A stretch of DNA of 64,000 nt from the NCBI GenBank assembly GCA_964421015.1, contig CAYQUS010000004.1:53744-117743 (forward strand), given 5' to 3'. The position numbers and the translations under genes are program-made. How positions within the stretch are numbered: the stretch's first letter is position 1; each line of letters begins with the position of its first letter. Positions 8,970 to 54,884 of the stretch are shown here, piece by piece. The stretch is from an uncultured Planctomycetia bacterium (lineage in GTDB: Bacteria; Omnitrophota; Gorgyraeia; Tantalellales; Tantalellaceae). Below the pieces are notes generated by a model. That model was given only the letters and a program-made list of their open reading frames with translations, did not search any database and was not told where the DNA came from.

Positions 8970-10394
8970 TTATTCTTTTAACACTTTTATCTGAAAAGGG
9001 TTATCAATTATCATTTCCGTCCCGGAAAGTGTTTTCTGGACCTTACCGAAAACCTCTACGGTTTTTCCATTATATCCATTTAAAGGATCGACGGCTTCAT
9101 CGTAAAAAAATCGCAAGTTCCTCGAAGGTATAATGATCCTCAGTTTTTCTTTCCCTTCGCCGAACATAAGACTTAGCCGTCCGGGAGATACTTCTGCCCC
9201 GGTTATCCTGTCCCTGATAAAACAATAAGAACCAGAGTAAGCAGAAGCTTCTTCGGCCTTGATTTTCGGGGCCCTCCCCCATATCCCTCTCCCGGAGGCA
9301 ACCGCTTTCTGCTGAGCCTGGTTCAAGGCCTTATAATATCTCACATTGGGAGGAAAAGTATATACGCTCGCCAACCCCTCCTCGATAAGTTTCAAATTTA
9401 CCATTTCCCCATCGGCGTAAACATAAGCCAGGTATCTGCCGTACTTATCCTTTATGTCCTGATCAAACTCAAGCGAAAGTTCTTTTCCCCTTACAAGCTC
9501 CTCATTTCTTTCCTTGGCCTCCACGGCTAACATTTCGGGAGAAAAAACCCACTCCGACCCTTGTTTTAGACGCGTTTCAGGAGCATCTATCCCCGTATAT
9601 CTGATCCTCTCTCCGGAGAAAAGTTCCACCGTATCACCGTCTATTACATATCGCGCCATCTGTTTTTTCCCCGAAAGCCGCTCGAATGAACCCTCGGCGC
9701 AACTTACAAGCGAAAAAAGGGTAAGAACGAGAAGAAGAAGCGCGCCTAACCTGCCGGATATCTTACGGCCTTTGGCAAAAAGACATTTCCCGCTGACAGG
9801 GCATTCCCCGCAAAGAGGCCTTATAGCGCGGCACACTTTCCTGCCATGCGATATTAGCACATTAGTGAGGTCCCCCCATTTGTCCCTGTCGAAAATTTTC
9901 ATAAGATCTTTCTCTACCCTGACAGGATCCGCGTTCCCGGTAAACCCTATCCTGCCGGAAACCCTCTTGACATGCGTATCGACTGCTATGCCTTCTATCT
10001 TACCGAATCCGTGATAAAGCACTATGTTGGCCGTTTTTCTGGCCACCCCGGGAAGGCTTACGAGTTCTTTCATGGTACCGGGAACCTTACCTCCGAAACT
10101 TTTCTCTATTTTTCTGGCCGATCCTATTATGTAGCGTGCCTTGCTCCTGTAGAAACCCGTAGACTTTATTATCCTCTCAATATCTCGCTGGCCAGCCGCC
10201 GCGATTTTTTCTATAGTCGGGTATTTTTTAAAAAGTTCCGGAGTGACCATGTTGACCCTTTTGTCGGTGCACTGAGCCGATAGGATCGTCGCTATAAGAA
10301 GCTCGTGAGGTTTCTGGTACTCGAGCGCTGTCGTGGATCCGGGGTAGGCTTTAGAAAGAATGCCGTAGATCTCGGAGGCTATCTTCTTGTTCAT
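8970..10394 (-). CDS. nth: Endonuclease III (Nth, 4Fe-4S) fused in frame to a thermonuclease (SNase) domain and a C-terminal domain of unknown function, through a hydrophobic lipoprotein-signal-like segment
   Basis: Residues 1-210 are EndoIII with CX6CX2CX5C. Residues 215-232 (LGALLLLVLTLFSLVSC) are hydrophobic and lipobox-like. Residues 240-375 are SNase (YVIDGDTVEL...YTGIDAPE). Residues 376-474 are unassigned. No canonical internal start precedes the hydrophobic segment. Confidence 0.7.
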   Translation of the reverse strand: MNKKIASEIYGILSKAYPGSTTALEYQKPHELLIATILSAQCTDKRVNMVTPELFKKYPTIEKIAAAGQRDIERIIKSTGFYRSKARYIIGSARKIEKSFGGKVPGTMKELVSLPGVARKTANIVLYHGFGKIEGIAVDTHVKRVSGRIGFTGNADPVRVEKDLMKIFDRDKWGDLTNVLISHGRKVCRAIRPLCGECPVSGKCLFAKGRKISGRLGALLLLVLTLFSLVSCAEGSFERLSGKKQMARYVIDGDTVELFSGERIRYTGIDAPETRLKQGSEWVFSPEMLAVEAKERNEELVRGKELSLEFDQDIKDKYGRYLAYVYADGEMVNLKLIEEGLASVYTFPPNVRYYKALNQAQQKAVASGRGIWGRAPKIKAEEASAYSGSYCFIRDRITGAEVSPGRLSLMFGEGKEKLRIIIPSRNLRFFYDEAVDPLNGYNGKTVEVFGKVQKTLSGTEMIIDNPFQIKVLKE

Positions 10395-30791: not shown

Positions 30792-31988
30792 TTACTGCAA
30801 TATTTCCGCCACTACTCCGGCGCCTACCGTATGTCCGCCTTCTCTTATGGCGAACCTCAGTTCCTTCTCTATGGCTACCGGCGTTATAAGCTCAACTTCG
30901 ACCGTAACGTTGTCGCCCGGCATTACCATCTCCACTCCCTTAGCCAGCGTAACCACTCCGGTAACGTCCGTCGTCCTTATGTAGAACTGCGGCCTGTACC
31001 CGTTGAAGAAAGGCGTATGCCTTCCACCTTCTTCTTTGCTCAGTATGTACACCTCGGCCTTGAACTTGGTGTGCGGTGTTATAGACCCCGGAGCGGCAAG
31101 TACCTGTCCCCTCTCAAGATTGTTCTTGTCTATACCCCTCAAAAGCACTCCAACGTTGTCTCCGGCCTGACCCTCGTCAAGCAGCTTACGGAACATCTCT
31201 ATTCCCGTAACCGTGCTCTTCTTCGTGTCCCCAAGTCCCACTATCTCCACTTCTTCCCCGACCTTTACCTTACCTCTCTCTATCCTGCCCGTACCGACCG
31301 TTCCTCTTCCGGTTATGCTGAACACGTCCTCTATCGGCATAAGAAAAGGCTTGTCAACGTCTCTCACCGGCGTGGGTATGAAATTGTCGCAGGCGTCCAT
31401 AAGCTCGTCTATGAACTTGCAGTCCGGGCTATTGAGCGCTCCCTCCGCCTGAAGGGCCTTAAGCGCGCTGCCCTTGATTATCGGGGTCGTGTCGCCAGGA
31501 AAATTGTACTTCGTCAAAAGCTCTCTTATCTCAAGCTCAACAAGGTCAAGAAGCTCGGGATCGTCAACCATGTCCACCTTGTTCATGCATACCACTATCG
31601 CGGGCACGTTTACCTGCCTGGCCAGAAGTATGTGCTCTCTCGTCTGCGGCATCGGGCCGTCAGCCGCCGAAACTACAAGTATCGCCCCGTCCATCTGCGC
31701 CGCGCCCGTTATCATGTTCTTGATGTAGTCGGCGTGACCGGGACAGTCTATGTGCGCGTAATGCCTGGCGTTCGTCATGTACTCAACGTGCGCCACGGCT
31801 ATGGTAATTCCTCTTTCCTTTTCCTCGGGAGCCTTGTCTATGGTGTCAAAAGCCCTCTTCTCGGCCATGCCTTTATTCGCCAGGTACAACGTTATCGCGG
31901 ACGTAAGCGAAGTCTTGCCGTGGTCTACGTGACCTATCGTGCCTATGTTAAGATGCGGCTTTGTTCGTTCGAATTTTTCCTTGGCCAT
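30792..31988 (-). CDS. tuf: Elongation factor Tu, str-operon copy
   Basis: 398 aa; [17 protein letters not shown] motifs. The protein string is identical to the 46473..47669 copy. Confidence 0.95.
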
Positions 31989-46472: not shown

Positions 46473-47669
46473 TTACTGCAATATTTCCGCCACTACTCCG
46501 GCGCCTACCGTATGTCCGCCTTCTCTTATGGCGAACCTCAGTTCCTTCTCTATGGCTACCGGCGTTATAAGCTCAACTTCGACCGTAACGTTGTCGCCCG
46601 GCATTACCATCTCCACTCCCTTAGCCAGCGTAACCACTCCGGTAACGTCCGTCGTCCTTATGTAGAACTGCGGCCTGTACCCGTTGAAGAAAGGCGTATG
46701 CCTTCCACCTTCTTCTTTGCTCAGTATGTACACCTCGGCCTTGAACTTGGTGTGCGGTGTTATAGACCCCGGAGCGGCAAGTACCTGTCCCCTCTCAAGA
46801 TTGTTCTTGTCTATACCCCTCAAAAGCACTCCAACGTTGTCTCCGGCCTGACCCTCGTCAAGCAGCTTACGGAACATCTCTATTCCCGTAACCGTGCTCT
46901 TCTTCGTGTCCCCAAGTCCCACTATCTCCACTTCTTCCCCGACCTTTACCTTACCTCTCTCTATCCTGCCCGTACCGACCGTTCCTCTTCCGGTTATGCT
47001 GAACACGTCCTCTATCGGCATAAGAAAAGGCTTGTCAACGTCTCTCACCGGCGTGGGTATGAAATTGTCGCAGGCGTCCATAAGCTCGTCTATGAACTTG
47101 CAGTCCGGGCTATTGAGCGCTCCCTCCGCCTGAAGGGCCTTAAGCGCGCTGCCCTTGATTATCGGGGTCGTGTCGCCAGGAAAATTGTACTTCGTCAAAA
47201 GCTCTCTTATCTCAAGCTCAACAAGGTCAAGAAGCTCGGGATCGTCAACCATGTCCACCTTGTTCATGCATACCACTATCGCGGGCACGTTTACCTGCCT
47301 GGCCAGAAGTATGTGCTCTCTCGTCTGCGGCATCGGGCCGTCAGCCGCCGAAACTACAAGTATCGCCCCGTCCATCTGCGCCGCGCCCGTTATCATGTTC
47401 TTGATGTAGTCGGCGTGACCGGGACAGTCTATGTGCGCGTAATGCCTGGCGTTCGTCATGTACTCAACGTGCGCCACGGCTATGGTAATTCCTCTTTCCT
47501 TTTCCTCGGGAGCCTTGTCTATGGTGTCAAAAGCCCTCTTCTCGGCCATGCCTTTATTCGCCAGGTACAACGTTATCGCGGACGTAAGCGAAGTCTTGCC
47601 GTGGTCTACGTGACCTATCGTGCCTATGTTAAGATGCGGCTTTGTTCGTTCGAATTTTTCCTTGGCCAT
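46473..47669 (-). CDS. tuf: Elongation factor Tu, second copy, in a tRNA-Thr-tuf-rpmG-tRNA-Trp-secE-nusG context
   Basis: The 398-aa protein string is identical to the 30792..31988 copy. Nucleotide identity runs from the stop codon to about 10 nt upstream of the ATG and then stops. Confidence 0.95.
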
Positions 47670-47779: not shown

Positions 47780-47855
47780 TGGAGCCCTCGGCCGGAATTG
47801 AACCGGCGACCCCATCCTTACCATGGATGTGCTCTACCGGCTGAGCTACAAGGGC
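47780..47855 (-). tRNA. tRNA-Thr (anticodon GGT)
   Basis: Minus strand GCCCTTG-TA-GCTC-AGCCGGTA-GAGC...CATCC-ATGGTAA-GGATG...GCCGG-TTCAATT-CCGGC-CGAGGGC-T-CCA. 76 nt. Confidence 0.85.
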
Positions 47856-47983
47856 GCGCTTTTTCCACCGTTTCTTTTCCTCTATATCTTATCGGCTAAA
47901 GCTCAAAACCACACCATATGCTCGGCTTTAACGCCGGCACTGCATGTGCGGTATATGTATATTTTCGCCTAACCGAGATGTCG

Positions 47984-48011
47984 GAGTTAAGATTTTACCA
48001 AATAAGTCTTT
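47984..48011 (-). promoter_or_regulatory. Candidate sigma-70 promoter of the tRNA-Thr-tuf operon
   Basis: Minus strand: TTGACA (48011..48006), 16-nt spacer, TAAAAT (47989..47984). An AT-rich tract lies upstream. Confidence 0.45.
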
Positions 48012-48103
48012 TTTGTCAAGCCATATTTGCCATTTTTTTATTTTCTATTGTTTTTCACCCCGAACCGCCGCCACGGAAAGTTTTTTTTAGAAAATAACGG
48101 CAC

Positions 48104-48132
48104 TTTACTCCGAAGAGTTCATCGGATATACT
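48104..48132 (+). promoter_or_regulatory. Candidate promoter of the plus-strand small-protein operon
   Basis: TTTACT, 17-nt spacer, TATACT. It ends 8 nt before the ATG, so the transcript would be nearly leaderless. Confidence 0.3.
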
Positions 48133-48139
48133 TAATGCT

Positions 48140-48535
48140 ATGAAAAAACCGCCTTCTATGAGCTCTGCCTTAACAATGTGGACATTTTTCAGCCTCGGCA
48201 TACTTTCGTCGCTGGCCTTCCGTGTTCTCATAGTCTTCCACCACATCGATCCCGGAATGGTCCGCCCTGTGTGGTACGCCGGGGTCGCGGGCTATACTTT
48301 CTTTTTTTTCTACAGGTACGGCATATCGAAAAAACGTAAAAAAGCTGTTACGGATTTTGGCCTGCTTGAAAAAATATCCTCGGGGGAGTGCCTTTCGGGA
48401 GACGACAGAAAAGCCGCGGAGTATCTTTTTAGATCAATAACCAAGTCAAAAGAGGATATCAACTACCTTGTTATTTTTATTCTGTCGATAGTGGCAGTGG
48501 GCATAGACCTGGCCCTTAAAGCCGCGGGGAGATAG
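48140..48535 (+). CDS. Small integral membrane protein (3 predicted TM helices), unknown function
   Basis: 131 aa with hydrophobic segments at about 13-33, 43-60 and 108-128. First gene of a tightly spaced 4-gene plus-strand cluster. Confidence 0.55.
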   Translation: MKKPPSMSSALTMWTFFSLGILSSLAFRVLIVFHHIDPGMVRPVWYAGVAGYTFFFFYRYGISKKRKKAVTDFGLLEKISSGECLSGDDRKAAEYLFRSITKSKEDINYLVIFILSIVAVGIDLALKAAGR

Positions 48536-48538
48536 GCT

Positions 48539-49015
48539 ATGAGAAAACTGCCTGCCTTTGTCATATTAGCGCTGTGCCTGTCATCATGGGCCTATCCCGA
48601 AGCGGTTCACGCTCAACCTCTTTCGTCACGCCCCTCCGCTCCGGTCGTCGACCCCTCAGATCCGATGGATGCCGTACGGGAGAAGGTAGCCGACCAGATC
48701 TATCTTTATCGGGAGGTAATGCAGCACATATCTGATATCTCTGAAAGTTTCAGTTACGGGTACAATACCCCCGACGAAGCTCTCAAAAGGGTCCTTGTTC
48801 TGAGGCACGCCTACAACACCAAATCCGAGCCGCTTTGCCCCGAGATAAAGCGGTTCAATGACCTAATGAACCAGATGTTCTCGCGGCTCGAGAACTATTT
48901 CATCCATTTTAAGCAGATATACCGGGAGGATCCTTACCTGAACGCGAAACTTGCCGAGACAAAATTCTACACCGCCGAGGAAGCCGAAAGGCTTGAATAT
49001 ACTTACCTTAAATAG
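48539..49015 (+). CDS. Secreted protein of unknown function (signal peptide MRKLPAFVILALCLSSWAYPEAVHA)
   Basis: 158 aa. Starts 4 nt after the upstream gene. No recognisable motif. Confidence 0.5.
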   Translation: MRKLPAFVILALCLSSWAYPEAVHAQPLSSRPSAPVVDPSDPMDAVREKVADQIYLYREVMQHISDISESFSYGYNTPDEALKRVLVLRHAYNTKSEPLCPEIKRFNDLMNQMFSRLENYFIHFKQIYREDPYLNAKLAETKFYTAEEAERLEYTYLK

Positions 49016-49023
49016 GAGAAAAA

Positions 49024-49140
49024 ATGAAACTTTCATCGTCTCAGATAATTTCTTTGGCTGTCCTGGTGGCAATTACGATGATCGTGGTGTATATTCTTAG
49101 ACAGGAAATATCCGACATGCTTTTTCTCGGGGGGAAATAA
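49024..49140 (+). CDS. 38-aa single-TM peptide
   Basis: Hand-translated MKLSSSQIISLAVLVAITMIVVYILRQEISDMLFLGGK. Its stop overlaps the next start (TAACATG). Confidence 0.35.
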   Translation: MKLSSSQIISLAVLVAITMIVVYILRQEISDMLFLGGK

Positions 49141-49141
49141 C

Positions 49142-49465
49142 ATGACACTTGTATCGACCAAAACAAAATGCCGAATGATCGCAGCGGCAACTTTATCCTT
49201 TTCCCTATTCGCGTCCCCTTGTCCCGCCGACCCCATGGACAATCTTAGCAGAACAAGCATAGACCAGGCGACGCGTGAAGTCGACAAAGAGGTGATCCCG
49301 GAAAACTTTCAATGGGTGGTCCGCAAAAAGGCGGACATAAGAAAAGAAGACGGCCAGCTCATAGAGGATCCCGATAAAGACCTGGAAGGTTTTCCTCTCG
49401 AAGAAACCGCCGACGACTTCCCCCCATGCGCCCCGTGCTCCATCAAACCGCAAAAGAGCCGTTAA
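49142..49465 (+). CDS. Small secreted protein of unknown function (signal peptide; acidic; C-terminal PPCAPC)
   Basis: 107 aa. Last gene of the plus-strand cluster. Confidence 0.45.
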   Translation: MTLVSTKTKCRMIAAATLSFSLFASPCPADPMDNLSRTSIDQATREVDKEVIPENFQWVVRKKADIRKEDGQLIEDPDKDLEGFPLEETADDFPPCAPCSIKPQKSR

Positions 49466-49512
49466 CATTTACCGGCTACAAGCGGCGCGGATACTTTTTT
49501 TCAGCAAATCAA

Positions 49513-49541
49513 TTGACAAGAATTCAGAAAGAGTATATCAT
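49513..49541 (+). promoter_or_regulatory. Candidate promoter of tRNA-Gly
   Basis: TTGACA, 17-nt spacer, TATCAT. Located about 20 nt upstream of the tRNA 5' end. Confidence 0.45.
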
Positions 49542-49560
49542 TTTCCTTCGTGGCACAAGG

Positions 49561-49634
49561 GCGAGCGTAGCACAATGGTAGTGCAGAAGCCTTCCAAGCT
49601 TCCTACGTGGGTTCGATTCCCATCGCTCGCTCCA
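49561..49634 (+). tRNA. tRNA-Gly (anticodon TCC)
   Basis: GCGAGCG-TA-GCAC-AATGGTA-GTGC-A-GAAGC-CTTCCAA-GCTTC...GTGGG-TTCGATT-CCCAT-CGCTCGC-T-CCA. Confidence 0.85.
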
Positions 49635-49649
49635 TCTTTCCCGCGCTCC

Positions 49650-50108
49650 CTACTCCGCGTCTTGGCGATACTCAGATATAGGACTGCCTTCCGCTCCGGC
49701 ATAAAAAACAACTATTTCCGCCGGCTTATCGCCCTCGTTATAGCCGTAATGCCATGTATCTACCACCTCGACTATGGCCTCTCCTTCTTTTAGATGAAGA
49801 ATGTCCCCACGCTCGGTAACAACAGTAAGCTCTCCGCTCACCATGTATCCCGCGTTCATAACAGGATGCAAGTGCGTCGGAAGCTTTACCCCGGGAGGTA
49901 TTTTTATATCAAGAACGGTAATTTCGCTCTGCCCTTGAGGGTACCCTGGAAGAATGTTACCGTCCCATGAATTTGAAGTTTTAGCCAGTACTCGGGTTTC
50001 AATCGCCGTCTTTTCCGCTACCGCCTCTTCTCCACATGCCCCGGAATGTATCAAAAAAGCGAAACCCCATACAAATACACATCTTGCGATCTTCCTATAG
50101 GTTAACAC
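49650..50108 (-). CDS. Periplasmic cupin-domain protein
   Basis: Signal peptide, then a cupin_2 barrel with metal-site histidines (PTHLHP...H). Confidence 0.65.
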   Translation of the reverse strand: MLTYRKIARCVFVWGFAFLIHSGACGEEAVAEKTAIETRVLAKTSNSWDGNILPGYPQGQSEITVLDIKIPPGVKLPTHLHPVMNAGYMVSGELTVVTERGDILHLKEGEAIVEVVDTWHYGYNEGDKPAEIVVFYAGAEGSPISEYRQDAE

Positions 50109-50136
50109 TTATCCCCCTCTGCCCGGAAGTTATAAA

Positions 50137-50469
50137 CTATTTCTTATCGGTGCCCATAAGGGCTCCGCGTCTTTCCTCTCTCCTCTCTTGCCTTCTTTCT
50201 ATGCCGGCTTCTACTATGCCGGTGGCTTCCTTACCCACTTCTGATACGGCGGAAACAGCCGGTAGAGATGCTTTTTCGGAAGAAGCCGCGGTTTCCTGTA
50301 CAGCCGGGGTTTCTGTAACGATAGGGGCAGATCCCTCGGTAACAGCCGGAGCTTGAACGGAAACTTGCGTTTCATTGGCCTGCTGATCTACATTCTCTGG
50401 CTCTTCCGCGGCGAACGCCATACTGGAAACGAAAACTAATGCCATCACCATACTAATAATTTTTTTCAT
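50137..50469 (-). CDS. Small secreted low-complexity (Ala/Glu/Val/Thr-rich) protein with an Arg/Glu-rich C-terminus
   Basis: 110 aa; signal peptide MKKIISMVMALVFVSSMAFA. Confidence 0.45.
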   Translation of the reverse strand: MKKIISMVMALVFVSSMAFAAEEPENVDQQANETQVSVQAPAVTEGSAPIVTETPAVQETAASSEKASLPAVSAVSEVGKEATGIVEAGIERRQERREERRGALMGTDKK

Positions 50470-50730
50470 ACTGTCCCTCCTCCGGTCTGTTCTTCAGACT
50501 TTTTAATAAAGGTTTTCACCACCGGGGCGGTAAAAAAACATTCTCCCGGTGAACCATAAACCCGTTTATTATAACTCCGGGCTTCAAGATTGTAAACTTA
50601 ATGCCGTATCAACATATTACGTCTTTTTACGATACGCCCGGTCACCGGATCTGAGGAAATACGCTCTAAATTTTCCAGGGGTTACGCAAAGCCGAACATA
50701 AAAAAACTTCGCGGGCTTTCGCCTCGGCTT

Positions 50731-51522
50731 CTACTCCGCTATCTCGATGCAGTTAATAAGGAAGGTCCTGAGCTCCTGACGGAGATGACAGAAAGAATAA
50801 ACATAATCGCCTTTTATGCTCAGGGGGGTGATAGTCCTTTCCGTGATCTTTTCTTTCCACGAAGACCTGTACCTGATCTTTACGGGATCCTGTGTCTTTA
50901 TGGCTCGGTTCAATACCGTTAGCACATTCCCGCCGGCGGCAGCCGGGCCGGCCGTCTGCGTATAGGTCCTGGCTATATCCTCAACGTTCTCTATACCTCG
51001 TTCTTTCAGGACCTCTAAGGCCTTATTAAAAACTCTCCAGGTGGATATTACATCTGCCAGTGCCCTGTGCTGGAGTTCCGCCTTGATATCGAAATATGAA
51101 ACCACATTACCAAGACTATAACCGCCCGGAACGGTGAAACAGCTCCTTGCCAGCTCAAGAACGTCTATAACAAGATAATCGTTAAGTTCGGTCCTTTTAG
51201 GCCCCAGGGCCGCGGCCAGAAAACTTATGTCGAACCTGGCGTTATACGCTAGAAGAACTGAACCCCTTATGAATTCCATAAACCCGGGCAATACTTGGTC
51301 TATTACTGGCCTGCCTTTAAGCATGTCAGAAGATATCCTGTTCACTCTGTAAGCGCCTGGTGAAACGGGCCTTAAAGGGTCCACAAGCTCCTCAAAAACG
51401 CTCTCTTTACCGTCAGGCTCGCGGCGCATTGCCCCGATCTCGCATATAGCGTCACCTGAACCGGCAAAAAGCCCGGTAGTTTCAAAGTCGAAAACCGTAT
51501 ATGTAGCTTCACTTAAATTCAT
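50731..51522 (-). CDS. DnaQ-like (DEDDh) 3'-5' exonuclease fused to a C-terminal WYL-like domain
   Basis: Exo I motif FDFETTGL; Exo III H...D motif (QHRALADV). C-terminal about 70 aa is VKIRYRSSWKEKITERTITPLSIKGDYVYSFCHLRQELRTFLINCIEI, which matches the WYL-domain pattern. Confidence 0.7.
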   Translation of the reverse strand: MNLSEATYTVFDFETTGLFAGSGDAICEIGAMRREPDGKESVFEELVDPLRPVSPGAYRVNRISSDMLKGRPVIDQVLPGFMEFIRGSVLLAYNARFDISFLAAALGPKRTELNDYLVIDVLELARSCFTVPGGYSLGNVVSYFDIKAELQHRALADVISTWRVFNKALEVLKERGIENVEDIARTYTQTAGPAAAGGNVLTVLNRAIKTQDPVKIRYRSSWKEKITERTITPLSIKGDYVYSFCHLRQELRTFLINCIEIAE

Positions 51523-51579
51523 AGTGTTGTGTTCGGGGTATTGAGTATCGAGGATGCTCCTATCGGCCCCGGCGCCATT

Positions 51580-52386
51580 TTATCCCGATACTTTATAAGT
51601 GATACCCTCGCGACTTCCCTCTGCCGGGTATTTATTTATCTCCTCTTTGGCCGCGGCTATCCTTTCGTACAGATACGGATGGCTGCGGAGAAAATACACC
51701 CATTTCGCATCCCCTCCAAGCCGCTGTAATTTCTCGAGGAATGTAACTATGGCGTTCGGGTCATATCCCGCCTGATACATGTACTTTATGGAAAGCCTGT
51801 CAGCCGCGTATTCGTCCTGTCGCGAAAACCCGTTGGCCGCCAAAGTGTAAACAACGTTGGCCGCCTGCGAAAAATACTGCCATGCCTGGTCTTTTTTATC
51901 GGCGGGCCGCGTATCTAAAAGATATGCCAGGTTAAGGGCCATCTCGGCGCCGAGCCCTTTTTCCACCATTTTCATCACATGCCTTGCCTCATCATGGCCC
52001 ATCTCATGGGCTATAACCGCGGCAAGCTCGTCATCCGTAGCCGCGGCCAGAAGGCCCGTGGAAACCACTATGTAACCGCCTCCCGGAGTGAAGGCCTGTA
52101 TTTCCTTATCCTCGTAAACTATTATGTGTTTGTCGCGGATACGCGGAGAACCTATGGGAGAGGCCAGAGCGCGGGCCGTCTCAAGGGCCCGGGCATCCTT
52201 AACCAAGACTTTTCCCTGAAGTTTAGCTCTCAGGGTATTGATCGCGATGGAATCTTCCTGCTCTAGAGAAAGCCAGGCAGCCTCGTTTTTCTGAGTAGCA
52301 GGATTGTAATAGGTCGCGCAGCCCGAAAAGACCGCGCACATGAAAACCGCCAGAAAAAAATTTAAATACCTCAACGCCCTCATCAT
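51580..52386 (-). CDS. M48-family zinc metallopeptidase lipoprotein
   Basis: Lipobox FSGC; HEMGH zinc motif (AHEMGHDEARH). Confidence 0.75.
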   Translation of the reverse strand: MMRALRYLNFFLAVFMCAVFSGCATYYNPATQKNEAAWLSLEQEDSIAINTLRAKLQGKVLVKDARALETARALASPIGSPRIRDKHIIVYEDKEIQAFTPGGGYIVVSTGLLAAATDDELAAVIAHEMGHDEARHVMKMVEKGLGAEMALNLAYLLDTRPADKKDQAWQYFSQAANVVYTLAANGFSRQDEYAADRLSIKYMYQAGYDPNAIVTFLEKLQRLGGDAKWVYFLRSHPYLYERIAAAKEEINKYPAEGSREGITYKVSG

Positions 52387-52522
52387 AATTCACCATGCAT
52401 TCTCTGTCCGGGCTTTTTAAATCGCCGCGCTCATGCCCAACCTTTTCGTCTCAAAAAAATAAACGGTCCGGGGACGCCATACACCCGGGCCCCGGACCGT
52501 TCTACACACGAATAATTCCGGA

Positions 52523-53191
52523 TCAGAACGACCAGTTAGCAAGGACCATGAATTCCATAGGATCCTTGTTGCCGTTATAGTTACCCAGGCCTATTTGAAG
52601 GCCGTTCAGGTTGTTGGTGTAATTCACAAGCCCGAGCTGAAATCCCTTCATTTCGGCGGCGTAATTTACAAGCCCTCCCTGAAAACCCTTAAAAGTACCG
52701 TCGTTGAAATTTACGACGCCAAGCTGGGCGCCTACGGATTCTCCTTTGGAAACGTTAAGAACACCGCACTGCCCCCCGTGCAGAGTCCCTTCCGTCCAGT
52801 TCACAAGACCCCACTGTATGCCTGTGGTGTCACCGCCTACAATATTAGCCATGCCGTACTGAAGCCCCACAAAGCGCTGTTTAACGTAGTTTACCATTCC
52901 TATCTCTATACCGTAAGCGGATCCCTCAACCCAGTTACCAAGACCGAACTCTACTCCGCTCATGTCGCCGGTGGTCCTGTTGACACCGAACCACACAAGG
53001 CTTAGACCCGTAACGTCCTTGTTGACGGTGTAAAAAACGCTGAGCCTAAGCCCCTTTATTGACTGGTCCTCAGGCACGGTCTGTACAGGGTTGAAAAGCG
53101 CGAGCTGTAAAGGCTGTGCCTCCGTGGCAAAAGCCGTCCTGGCCATTGCCGAGATCAAAATAACTGCCGCCACAAAAAATTTTTTCATCAT
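52523..53191 (-). CDS. Secreted outer-membrane-type repeat protein: about ten tandem 15-residue repeats (consensus h-Q-x-G-h-V-N-aromatic-x-x-G-x-x-x-G) and a C-terminal Phe
   Basis: Signal peptide, then repeats such as IEIGMVNYVKQRFVG / LQYGMANIVGGDTTG / IQWGLVNWTEGTLHG / FQGGLVNYAAEMKG / FQLGLVNYTNNLNG. The protein ends ...LANWSF. Confidence 0.6.
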   Translation of the reverse strand: MMKKFFVAAVILISAMARTAFATEAQPLQLALFNPVQTVPEDQSIKGLRLSVFYTVNKDVTGLSLVWFGVNRTTGDMSGVEFGLGNWVEGSAYGIEIGMVNYVKQRFVGLQYGMANIVGGDTTGIQWGLVNWTEGTLHGGQCGVLNVSKGESVGAQLGVVNFNDGTFKGFQGGLVNYAAEMKGFQLGLVNYTNNLNGLQIGLGNYNGNKDPMEFMVLANWSF

Positions 53192-53297
53192 GTTTTTCTC
53201 TCCTCCTTTTAACCCCCGGTTTTATATTTTCCGATTTCCCTATTCAGATTCTACGCCTTAGGGAACATATTTTCAAACTTTATCTTTTTGAACGTCT

Positions 53298-53720
53298 CTA
53301 TTCCCCGATCACTTTTATCAAAACCCTTTTACGGCGCTGTCCGTCGAACTCTCCGTAAAATATCTGTTCCCACGGCCCCAGATCAAGTCTGCCGTTCGTG
53401 ACCGCTACCACCACTTCTCTTCCCATAACGGTCCTTTTAAGATGAGCGTCGGCGTTGTCCTCTCCGGTGAGGTTATGTTTATATTTGTCCACTCCGTAGG
53501 GCGCGAGTTTTTCAAGCCACACCAGAAAATCCTGATGCAGTCCGGACTCATTATCGTTGATAAAAACAGAACTTGTTATGTGCATGGAGTTAACAAGACA
53601 CATCCCTTCCTTAGCCCCGCACTTTTTTACGGCTGCCTCCACCTGTGGCGTTATATTAATAATGTCGTACCTTTTTTCGGTGTTTAACCATAGATAATCC
53701 GTATGAACTTTCATCGCCAT
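53298..53720 (-). CDS. YjbQ-family (UPF0047) secondary thiamine-phosphate synthase-like protein
   Basis: 140 aa matching the YjbQ fold motifs (DITP...[13 protein letters not shown]...HLKRTVMG). Confidence 0.7.
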
Positions 53721-53827
53721 TCCTTTTTCTTTTTACCGGCCTTGAGTTTGAACGCCAGGCTCTCTTTTTTCTCTCTCTGAAGGCGCGATATGTCTTTCTG
53801 GCGCCGGGTTATTGTGTGTTTAGTCAT
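53711..53827 (-). CDS. Possible 38-aa highly basic peptide overlapping the yjbQ start (speculative)
   Basis: Hand-translated [43 protein letters not shown] sits 8 nt upstream. Its TGA overlaps the yjbQ ATGGCGATGA start region. Confidence 0.2.
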
Positions 53828-53838
53828 TCGCTCGCTCC

Positions 53839-54045
53839 TCACTTTAAAGGTTCAGGATCTTTGCACGCGGCCCAGACCAAAGCCGCCACCCATCCTATAA
53901 AAGTCCAGCCAAGGAGCAGGTTCAGTATAAAAATAGCCCCGGCATTACGTTTTCTTCGGCCGACTATGGCGGGCAGAAAATAAAAGAACAGGCTGAATAT
54001 GACCGCTAACGCGATGATAAGTACCGCGATCGTTCCTTCTTGCAT
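53839..54045 (-). CDS. Imm-type superinfection immunity family small membrane protein
   Basis: 68 aa; LPAIVGRRKRNAGAIFILNLLLGWTFIGWVAALVWAA matches the conserved core of the T4 Imm-like (PF14373-type) family. Confidence 0.6.
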   Translation of the reverse strand: MQEGTIAVLIIALAVIFSLFFYFLPAIVGRRKRNAGAIFILNLLLGWTFIGWVAALVWAACKDPEPLK

Positions 54046-54242
54046 GTAAGCCTCCTTAAGTCAGGTTTTAACACACCCCAACTCTAATTATAAGTGGCAC
54101 GGTTTTGGGGGGAAGGTCCCCATCACAACCCTTAGGTCACGTTTTTGTAAACACTTGCATTATAGACTTTATCGACAAGGTTTTCAACAGCTTGGTGGCC
54201 AATTTACAGGGTAGATTTGGCCGACCGTGGGCATATAAGAAC

Positions 54243-54276
54243 AAAACCCAGGATCTCTCTGAGATCCTGGGTTTTG
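54243..54276 (-). terminator. Intrinsic terminator, potentially bidirectional, downstream of tRNA-Tyr
   Basis: AAAA-CCCAGGATCTC-tct-GAGATCCTGGG-TTTT: a perfect 11-bp stem with an A tract and a T tract on either side. Confidence 0.7.
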
Positions 54277-54404
54277 GCCTCGGTTATTATTTGTCTTGGT
54301 GTCCCTTGGAGCCGGGGTCGGCTCCAAGGATCCCCCATCTTTCCGGGAATCTCACAAAAACTTTCCGCCCAAGGTAAGGAAAGTTTTTGTGTATAGGTTA
54401 AGCT

Positions 54405-54489
54405 GGTGGGGAGGGAAGGATTCGAACCTTCGAAGGCGTAAGCCGGCAGATTTACAGTCTGATGCGTTTGGCCACTTCGCTACCTCCCC
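54405..54489 (-). tRNA. tRNA-Tyr (anticodon GTA), class II with a long variable arm
   Basis: Minus strand GGGGAGG-TA-GCG...CTGTAAA...long variable arm...GAAGG-TTCGAAT-CCTTC-CCTCCCC-A-CCA. 85 nt. Confidence 0.85.
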
Positions 54490-54750
54490 GAACGAGGTGT
54501 ATTCTATGTTATAGAGCGCTTTTTGTCAAATAGCCTAAACTTTGACCTGTGATTGCTACTTGCATATTACTGTTTTTTTAGATCCTTCGGTCGCTTCGCT
54601 CCCTCAGGATGACGAACTTTAGGCTCAGGAAAACACCTTGGTGACAGGCACCTTTGTATCACAACATAGACCAGACAAAGTTGCCAGTCACCAGTCGCGG
54701 CAAAGTTGCCAAACACCTTTGAAAACACATTGGTGCCAGGCACCAATTGC

Positions 54751-54799
54751 TTCCTCCTTCCTCCTTCCTCCTTACTCCTTACTCCTTACTACTTTCTAC
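54751..54799. repeat. Seven tandem degenerate heptamers (TTCCTCC x3, TTACTCC x2, TTACTAC, TTTCTAC) in the tRNA-Thr/tRNA-Tyr spacer
   Basis: Direct reading of the plus strand. On the transcribed (minus) strand it is a purine tract (GGAGGAA)3(GGAGTAA)2.... Confidence 0.8.
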
Positions 54800-54808
54800 T
54801 TAAAGACA

Positions 54809-54884
54809 TGGAGCCGGCGGAGGGATTTGAACCCCCGACAGGCTGATTACAAATCAGCTACTCTACCAACTGAGTTACGCCGGC
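54809..54884 (-). tRNA. tRNA-Thr (anticodon TGT)
   Basis: Minus strand GCCGGCG-TA-ACTC-AGTTGGTA-GAGT-A-GCTGA-TTTGTAA-TCAGC-CTGTC-GGGGG-TTCAAAT-CCCTC-CGCCGGC-T-CCA. Confidence 0.85.

Follow-up and report, generated by a model that had tools for sequence, protein, structure and literature searches.

What would a bacterium use a protein for in which a DEDDh (DnaQ-like) 3′-5′ exonuclease is fused to a WYL domain? The question is raised by a gene in a stretch of 64,000 nucleotides (nt), here called the window, from an uncultured bacterium deposited as Planctomycetia and placed by GTDB in the Omnitrophota (Tantalellaceae; GenBank assembly GCA_964421015.1, contig CAYQUS010000004.1, positions 53,744 to 117,743 of the forward strand). 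We refer to the gene and its product as ExoWYL. An earlier note on this DNA, made from the sequence alone, had proposed the fusion, pointed to an adjacent M48 peptidase gene and suggested that the arrangement could encode a nucleic-acid-sensing effector. The open reading frame (ORF) lies exactly where that note had placed it, and the peptide strings quoted there are present in its translation. The features concerned are as follows, in coordinates of the window.

50731..51522, minus strand: ExoWYL, complete ORF with ATG start, 263 amino acids (aa), DEDDh exonuclease, linker and WYL domain (ORF list, Pfam)
51028..51495, minus strand: DEDDh (DnaQ/PolC-type) 3′-5′ exonuclease domain, residues 10-165 (Pfam RNase_T)
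50932..51027, minus strand: linker, residues 166-197 (AlphaFold model, alignment)
50737..50931, minus strand: WYL (Sm-like) domain, residues 198-262 (Pfam, profile against PDB, model)
51580..52386, minus strand: M48 zinc metallopeptidase lipoprotein, 268 aa, listed for context only (Pfam Peptidase_M48)

Both domains of the fusion are present, and the protein belongs to a sizeable family. We give about even chances to the reading that ExoWYL is a repair exonuclease that trims 3′ ends of single-stranded DNA (ssDNA), with the WYL domain as its ssDNA-binding module.

Domain architecture of ExoWYL

The N-terminal part matched Pfam RNase_T (PF00929) at residues 10-165 (E=4.9e-25; 89.4 bits against a cutoff of 24), and the protein passed the NCBIfam dnaq family domain TIGR00573 (83.3 bits against 71.5). 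The three motifs of this exonuclease class were found as D12-x-E14 (Exo I, FDFETTG), D98 (Exo II, NARFD) and H152-x4-D157 (Exo III, HRALAD). An alignment of 32 full-length relatives (A1) showed no variation at these five residues, and the catalytic residues were kept in 177-178 members (D98 in 177) of a family set of 178, which combined the relatives with cluster representatives added from an exhaustive profile search. The nearest solved sequence was the exonuclease domain of Thermotoga maritima PolC (2p1j; E=4.9e-22, 35% identity). In the AlphaFold model, residues 1-185 had a predicted local distance difference test score (pLDDT) of about 90-98, and Foldseek matched this half to PolC exo, DinG exo, DnaQ, epsilon, ExoX, TREX1 and RNase T. 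The fold is RNase H-like, with target template-modelling (TM) scores of 0.73-0.84 to PolC exo, DnaQ, epsilon and ExoX. Pfam, TIGR00573, the catalytic residues and the predicted fold all agree on the DEDDh exonuclease with Exo I-III motifs that the earlier note had described. The residues of the two-metal DEDDh active site are intact.

The C-terminal WYL domain that the same note had proposed was confirmed in three ways. First, the hidden Markov model check against WYL profiles gave a match to Pfam WYL (PF13280) at residues 200-260 above the curated threshold (E=1.7e-10; 41.2 bits against 21.8). Second, 24 relatives were aligned over their last 65-80 residues (A2), and the profile made from this part alone was compared with solved structures in the PDB. 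It matched the WYL domain of Arthrobacter aurescens PafBC (E=3.6e-24), Pif1 helicases with a C-terminal WYL domain (8bnv, 1.5e-13; 8bns, 2.8e-11) and Mycobacterium smegmatis PafC and PafB (about 2-3e-11), as well as CapW, BrxR and DriD. Third, an AlphaFold model of residues 199-263 (pLDDT 96.3) consisted of one helix (H2-12) followed by five strands in Sm topology, and was superposed on the WYL domain of Pseudomonas aeruginosa CapW (7tb5) with a TM score of 0.93 and a root-mean-square deviation (rmsd) of 1.1 Å, so that the Sm-like WYL fold anticipated by the note was borne out by structure prediction. Next in the list of fold matches were BrxR, PafBC, ssDNA-bound CapW and DriD, with Hfq, an Sm-fold protein, lower down. 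In full-protein numbering the domain comprises a helix at 198-210 and five strands, and its conserved residues are Y218, R229, P233, Y240, C245, R248, R252 and F254.

The two domains are joined by a linker made of the end of a long helix (153-174) and a poorly conserved Ala/Gly/Pro-rich stretch, which differs in length and sequence among the 32 aligned relatives. The full-length model had a pLDDT of 90.4 and a predicted TM score (pTM) of 0.72, and the linker was disordered at about residues 194-197 (pLDDT below 50; block mean 59). No helix-turn-helix (HTH) match was found in ExoWYL with Pfam, and the N-terminus is occupied by the exonuclease domain. There is no WCX domain, because the protein ends one residue past the last WYL strand; a match to PF25583 (WCX) was absent, unlike in a regulator encoded near one of the homologues (locus L001), which has one. 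The exonuclease protein also lacks a signal peptide and is predicted to be a cytoplasmic, stand-alone protein.

Ligand groove and a subclade variant

It has been reported that ssDNA binding by M. smegmatis PafB is abolished by the substitutions R181A, Y196A, R181A/R204A/R208A or R211A/R214A (PMC11804915). A HMMER alignment to PafB placed these positions in the window protein as follows.

PafB R181: window R229, kept
PafB Y196: window Y240, kept
PafB R204: window R248, kept
PafB R208: window R252, kept
PafB R211: window L255, lost
PafB R214: window C258, lost

Four of the six ssDNA-binding positions are thus kept and the final R-x-x-R pair, two arginines described as highly conserved, is gone: the window protein has RTFLINCI where the canonical motif is RTFRLDRI, and its subclade follows the pattern RTFL[IMV]xCI. 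R occupies position 229 in 170 of the 178 family members, and 152 have Y or F at position 240. R or K stands at position 248 in 152 and at position 252 in 169, while R occupies position 255 in 128 and position 258 in 126 (about 71-72% each). Taken over all six groove positions, R, K or Y is found in about 70-95% of members. The L/C variant is limited to the subclade of the window protein (at least 60% identity), which makes up about 8% of the sampled family. Because of this confinement, the family overall looks, from its residues, like a canonical ssDNA-type WYL binder, and the window protein like a derived variant.

The loss of the R-x-x-R pair could also mean that the WYL domain of this subclade no longer binds nucleic acid and serves as a structural, dimerisation or partner-binding module of a constitutive DEDDh exonuclease. 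The replacement by L255/C258 holds throughout the subclade, and the equivalent PafB double mutant loses ssDNA binding. However, conservation of the domain among members of the subclade is strong (55-74% identity over 65 residues), the segment KIRYRSSWKEK around the groove residues is very basic, and R229, Y240, R248 and R252 are kept, two of which correspond to R181 and Y196, where single PafB mutations also abolish binding. We regard this explanation as improbable.

Family size, distribution and gene contexts

A word-indexed search returned 51 relatives, about 40 of them with both domains by precomputed PF00929 and PF13280 matches; most were from Omnitrophota, and others from Chloroflexia and Nitrospira. 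Full-length homologues were 30-71% identical to the window protein. In the exhaustive profile search, the 150 top-ranking cluster representatives (50% identity) included at least 130 that were 255-310 aa long and matched end to end, and the E-value was still about 1e-64 at rank 150. Sampled cluster names add Limnocylindrales and Elusimicrobiota, and a genome scan adds Anaerolineae, Planctomycetota and Bacteroidota. The family therefore spans Omnitrophota, Chloroflexota, Nitrospirota, Planctomycetota, Bacteroidota and Elusimicrobiota. In the source databases its members are named 'exonuclease domain-containing', 'WYL domain-containing' or, by Joint Genome Institute (JGI) pipelines, 'DNA polymerase III epsilon'.

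Gene contexts were examined in 23 related loci (L numbers). The ExoWYL gene is chromosomal and shows a bias towards recombination neighbours: recombination or repair genes were directly adjacent in four loci (L001, L006, L020 and L010). In the first of these, from Omnitrophota (L001 1608-10680, also L002), AddB and AddA lie directly upstream of ExoWYL, which is followed by a 54-aa ORF, an HTH_11-WYL-WCX regulator and HIRAN, then by TPR, DUF1848 and a large DEAD-box helicase; the cluster resembles a module dedicated to DNA damage and encodes two different WYL proteins. In L006, a UvrD-type helicase and a PD-(D/E)XK nuclease (AddAB-type) are directly upstream. The AddAB pairs of L006 and L001 are only 23-27% identical, and we therefore consider the association to be independent in these distant lineages. 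A metagenome-assembled genome of Bacteroidota (L020 7495-10783) has the order RecA-RecX-PolB-exo-like exonuclease (DNA_pol_B_exo2)-ExoWYL, and in L010 RmuC is directly upstream. Repair-type genes were also found 2-5 kb away, including RecQ in L009 (3 kb), an HTH-WYL-WCX gene in L007 (3 kb), Nth in L088 and Ham1/RdgB in L003 and L014. The remaining loci had metabolic or envelope contexts. Three Anaerolineae species share a stable acyltransferase-ExoWYL synteny of housekeeping type.

For the homologue neighbourhoods that the earlier note had wished to see examined, the outcome was thus divided: defence genes were not the rule, and recombination and repair genes recurred. Homologues were not uniformly core replication or repair genes, since the contexts were mixed.

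Several features of these loci were observed in passing. In L020, two different predicted 3′-5′ exonucleases stand in a row behind recA. Two distant Omnitrophota loci (L017 and L019, about 30% identity) share the order LPG_synthase_C-like-ExoWYL-aminodeoxychorismate/anthranilate synthase component I, a second stable housekeeping context. Very large ORFs with few or weak Pfam matches flank ExoWYL in L005 (1-7774, 5573 aa), L006 (9158-16891, at least 3200 aa) and L087 (8695-12139, at least 1148 aa). They were discarded as a conserved partner, as the giant proteins are not detectably homologous to one another (by tblastn only in the case of L005). A match on the megaplasmid of Ruegeria sp. TM1040 with 87% query coverage was likewise set aside: it is the 479-aa exonuclease of a DUF294-exonuclease pair and not an ExoWYL. 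At that locus (L092; NC_008043.1, 719557-725099), a DUF294 nucleotidyltransferase-like gene lies beside the 479-aa 3′-5′ exonuclease gene and a separate WYL domain-containing protein is encoded 1 kb downstream, so that exonuclease and WYL are separate genes in this cultured organism.

A putative role in trimming ssDNA 3′ ends

Because DNA proofreading and repair enzymes are the nearest matches of the exonuclease domain, we infer that the substrate of ExoWYL is DNA rather than RNA. The WYL domain, in turn, would bind ssDNA, because the C-terminal WYL domain of T. elfii Pif1 (TePif1) works in this way, being needed for high-affinity ssDNA binding (bioRxiv 10.1101/163188; PMC9964779); such a role would also fit the manner in which CapW, DriD and PafBC hold ssDNA. 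That the domain binds nucleic acid is plausible.

In the proposed mechanism, the DEDDh domain would use two-metal-ion hydrolysis to remove nucleotides at free 3′ ends; D12, E14, D98 and D157 would coordinate the metals, and H152 would be the general base. The WYL domain, on its flexible linker of about 30 residues, would hold a stretch of single-stranded nucleic acid (ssDNA, most probably) beside the 3′ end, and would thus be an accessory substrate-binding or substrate-selecting module that confers affinity or selectivity. The enzyme would trim 3′ ssDNA tails, flaps and fragments in recombinational repair and the DNA-damage response, and not act in phage defence.

Several observations weigh against this reading. 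Judged by its residues, the L255/C258 variant of the subclade may weaken or alter ligand binding. With a pTM of 0.72 and a low-confidence linker, the relative orientation of the two domains cannot be assessed from the model. About half of the 23 loci have purely metabolic contexts, and L003 has RNA-related neighbours (RNase PH and NYN_YacP). In addition, no study of the fusion was found in the literature, where it is only listed, as '3′->5′ exoRNase' plus WYL (Makarova et al. 2014, PMC4012209).

A more specific possibility, to which we give a low probability, is that ExoWYL erases the ssDNA signal of WYL regulators and is in this sense the enzymatic counterpart of WYL transcription factors. 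The idea arises because of the AddAB-ExoWYL-regulator cluster of L001 and because PafBC is shut off in vitro by added ExoI (PMC11804915). ExoWYL would then destroy the short ssDNA fragments or tails that come from AddAB-type resection and switch on PafBC-, DriD- and CapW-type regulators, thereby ending or tuning the alarm. The L001 cluster would comprise the producer (AddAB), the eraser (ExoWYL) and the sensor (HTH-WYL-WCX), and the subclade of the window protein, without R-x-x-R, would represent a derived state in which the affinity for the ligand is altered.

ExoWYL could instead be an RNA-directed 3′-5′ exoribonuclease in the manner of RNase T or oligoribonuclease, with a WYL domain that binds single-stranded RNA (ssRNA) like Hfq and the Cas13d accessory protein WYL1. 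The label '3′->5′ exoRNase' of Makarova et al. points this way, as do the name of the Pfam family, RNase_T, the RNase T structures among the Foldseek matches and the presence of Hfq among the fold matches of the WYL model. In L003 and L004 the gene is followed by NYN_YacP, with RNase PH 3 kb off, and the window gene itself lies within a tRNA gene cluster. However, PolC, DinG, epsilon and ExoX rank ahead of RNase T in both sequence and structure, the WYL profile is nearest to ssDNA-binding WYL domains (PafBC, Pif1, CapW and DriD), PafBC is not activated by ssRNA (PMC11804915), and the recurring neighbours are DNA recombination genes. We therefore consider an RNA substrate unlikely.

In Escherichia coli, the epsilon subunit has a flexible C-terminal tail that binds the PHP domain of the polymerase, and a clamp-binding motif precedes this tail. 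ExoWYL might be an epsilon-like proofreading subunit of a replicative polymerase with a WYL domain in place of that tail, as would agree with the JGI name 'DNA polymerase III epsilon subunit', with the pass of TIGR00573, and with a gene that is chromosomal, single and vertically stable in Anaerolineae. Yet ExoWYL failed every NCBIfam equivalog cutoff, including those for epsilon, PolC, DinG and DEDD-GIY-YIG proteins, and its epsilon scores were far too low (TIGR01406, 71.4 against 222.7 bits; PRK05711, 73.5 against 196). A folded WYL domain stands where the alpha-binding tail and clamp motif of E. coli epsilon would be, and a QxxLxF-like clamp motif was absent from the linker TYTQTAGPAAAGGN. 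No polymerase gene was consistently adjacent; a PHP-domain neighbour in L087 was considered as DnaE and rejected, as it has no DNA_pol3_alpha match, and it was not used as a link to the replisome. In addition, Omnitrophota have other DEDDh genes that lack a WYL domain (L025, L028, L037 and L043). A proofreading role is thus very unlikely.

Genomic setting and the case for defence

The DNA of the window is core chromosome. Almost all of its genes are on the minus strand, and they include mutS, mutL, the S10/spc/alpha ribosomal operons, fusA, two tuf copies, rpoB and rpoC, together with secE/nusG-type genes, ftsH, folP and tilS. The ExoWYL gene lies within a stretch of about 7 kb between tRNA genes. 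The stretch starts with tRNA-Thr(tgt) and tRNA-Tyr at 54.4-54.9 kb, followed by about 5 kb of unrelated genes (Imm_superinfect, UPF0047, a 222-aa secreted protein, M48, ExoWYL, a 110-aa secreted protein and a cupin), then by tRNA-Gly(tcc) on the opposite strand (49561-49634), three unknown plus-strand ORFs, and tRNA-Thr(ggt) and tuf. GC content around the gene, 0.47-0.52 against 0.489 overall, is unremarkable. A mobile island between the tRNA genes was considered and found no support: there was no compositional shift, no flanking direct repeat of at least 13 nt and no integrase ORF. With a core-genome setting and an unremarkable composition, the view of the earlier note that the arrangement is not a standard housekeeping one was not supported.

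Signs of a defence function were scarce. None of nine neighbouring window proteins matched PADLOC-DB 2.0 models, and no CRISPR-like array was found in the window. ExoWYL itself had domain-level matches only in PADLOC (DEDDh, WYL, and the exonuclease half of the candidate system PDC-S48). Among the homologues, the only defence-like neighbours were an AbiEi antitoxin gene 0.9 kb away in L008 and an HTH-M78 plus PIN gene (predicted, by eye) in L007; restriction-modification (RM), cyclic-oligonucleotide-based antiphage signalling (CBASS), CRISPR and bacteriophage exclusion (BREX) genes were adjacent to ExoWYL in none of the 23 loci. Among phage records, none reached a coverage of 80% of the protein, and no viral structure matched past the exonuclease domain, so the two-domain architecture was not seen there. 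The suggestion of a defence-type nucleic-acid-sensing effector was therefore not upheld, given no PADLOC neighbour, no CRISPR-like array or phage architecture, and homologues in stable chromosomal contexts.

The most improbable explanation is an anti-phage effector whose nuclease is switched on when the WYL domain senses nucleic acid of a phage or a signalling nucleotide. In its favour, an enrichment of WYL domains near defence systems has been described (Makarova et al. 2014, PMC4012209), PADLOC has cas-associated models for both DEDDh and WYL, the candidate single-gene system PDC-S48 is similar to the exonuclease part (E=1.7e-28) and the neighbours in L008 and L007 are suggestive. However, the PDC-S48 match extends only over positions 3-205 of 411, which is the exonuclease half of a protein of 411-512 aa, and the window neighbours, the core setting without arrays or flanking repeats, the lack of adjacent defence systems and the conserved synteny in Anaerolineae all speak against it.

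The neighbouring M48 peptidase gene

The gene adjacent to ExoWYL encodes a protein with a strong Peptidase_M48 match (E=1.5e-32; 113.4 bits against a cutoff of 20.3), a HEMGH zinc motif at residue 127 and the lipobox FSGC. It is LoiP/BepA-like, yet falls under the NCBIfam equivalog cutoffs for BepA, LoiP and HtpX. As a lipoprotein signal is present, the product would be exported. The earlier note had described the exonuclease gene as followed by the M48 gene. The two are indeed on the same strand and 57 nt apart, but this order is true only in plus-strand coordinates; in the direction of transcription the M48 gene comes first. The 57-nt gap contains no terminator-like or promoter-like site, which makes co-transcription likely, and the two genes are probably co-transcribed.

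The pair is kept in the closest relative (L091; M48 72% and ExoWYL 71% identical, gap about 10 nt), where the genes further upstream differ from those of the window. It is absent in relatives at 62-66% identity (L007, L008 and L001), and L005 has only a distant Ste24-type M48 gene 1.3 kb away. The peptidase was therefore rejected as a functional partner: adjacency was found only in L091, and an exported lipoprotein stands against an exonuclease without signal peptide. The linkage that the earlier note had suggested is not supported. We read the pairing as short-range synteny with a lineage-specific operon neighbour that has no mechanistic link.

Other observations in the window

In E. coli, the tRNA genes corresponding to those around ExoWYL form one operon with tufB. 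In the window, the tRNA set of this tufB-type operon is split (47780-54884). The two tuf (EF-Tu) copies, at 30792-31988 and 46473-47669, show 100% identity along their full 1197 nt, implying that gene conversion is ongoing. Just after the tRNA-Tyr gene, at 53839-54045 on the minus strand, a 68-aa membrane protein with an Imm_superinfect match (E=4.6e-15) adjoins UPF0047. Directly downstream of mutS-mutL, at 8970-10394 on the minus strand, a 474-aa protein joins an HhH-GPD endonuclease III-type (Nth) glycosylase domain to a staphylococcal-nuclease (SNase) domain, an unusual repair-enzyme fusion. Tandem cobalamin riboswitch aptamers were detected at 1253-1330 and 1410-1614 on the minus strand (AdoCbl-II, 51.5 bits; Cobalamin, 101.2 bits).

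Relation to known systems

ExoWYL appears to work most like the Pif1-WYL helicases of thermophilic bacteria (TePif1 and the Deferribacter/Sulfurihydrogenibium enzymes, 8bnv/8bns), which likewise combine a DNA enzyme with a single WYL domain at the extreme C-terminus, without HTH or WCX. The WYL domain of TePif1 serves as an accessory module for ssDNA binding and tunes catalysis (bioRxiv 10.1101/163188). The catalytic part is a superfamily 1B (SF1B) helicase in Pif1-WYL and a DEDDh exonuclease in ExoWYL, and the WYL domain of Pif1 keeps the FR-x-D-R arginines (RVFRIDRI), whereas the window protein is without them.

With the wHTH-WYL-WCX factors (PafBC, DriD, CapW, BrxR and SiwR), ExoWYL shares the WYL fold (TM 0.85-0.93, rmsd 1.1-2.1 Å) and groove residues like PafB R181, Y196, R204 and R208, and some of its homologues adjoin such regulators (L001 and L007). 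However, equivalents of R211/R214 are missing in ExoWYL, the output of these factors is transcription, whereas ExoWYL is an enzyme, and their ssDNA lies between WYL and WCX, which is impossible in ExoWYL. Because HTH and WCX, the two defining features, are absent, ExoWYL is not an HTH-WYL-WCX regulator. With PolC/DnaQ-like exonucleases (2p1j, Staphylococcus aureus DinG exo 8zef, E. coli epsilon and ExoX), it has the Exo I-III motifs and the fold in common (Foldseek E about 1e-11 to 1e-12), but it is a stand-alone protein of 263 aa without a polymerase, helicase or GIY-YIG partner domain, and has WYL in place of the epsilon tail.

The architecture as such has been noticed before. A '3′->5′ exoRNase'-WYL fusion was included among WYL architectures by Makarova, Anantharaman, Grishin, Koonin & Aravind in 2014 (PMC4012209), who listed it without function, context analysis or experiment; the listed examples were not found in the supplement of that paper. 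Both domains are already labelled by Pfam and NCBI pipelines. ExoWYL is thus a member of a catalogued, uncharacterised family, and belongs within it to a subclade with a variant WYL motif. The fusion is neither unexpected in kind nor part of an unusual system.

Implications

These results bear on annotation in two ways: the name 'DNA polymerase III epsilon subunit' should be avoided for genes of this kind, and the presence of a WYL domain should not by itself count as evidence for defence. WYL domains have been recognised since 2022 as ssDNA sensors in SOS-independent DNA-damage responses (PafBC and DriD), and they are also behind de-repression of CBASS and BREX (CapW and BrxR). Almost all of this work has been on transcription factors, and Pif1-WYL is the only enzyme fusion with experiments that we found in the literature. 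A compact protein composed of a nuclease and a WYL domain would be a simple test case for whether WYL domains can gate or guide catalysis.

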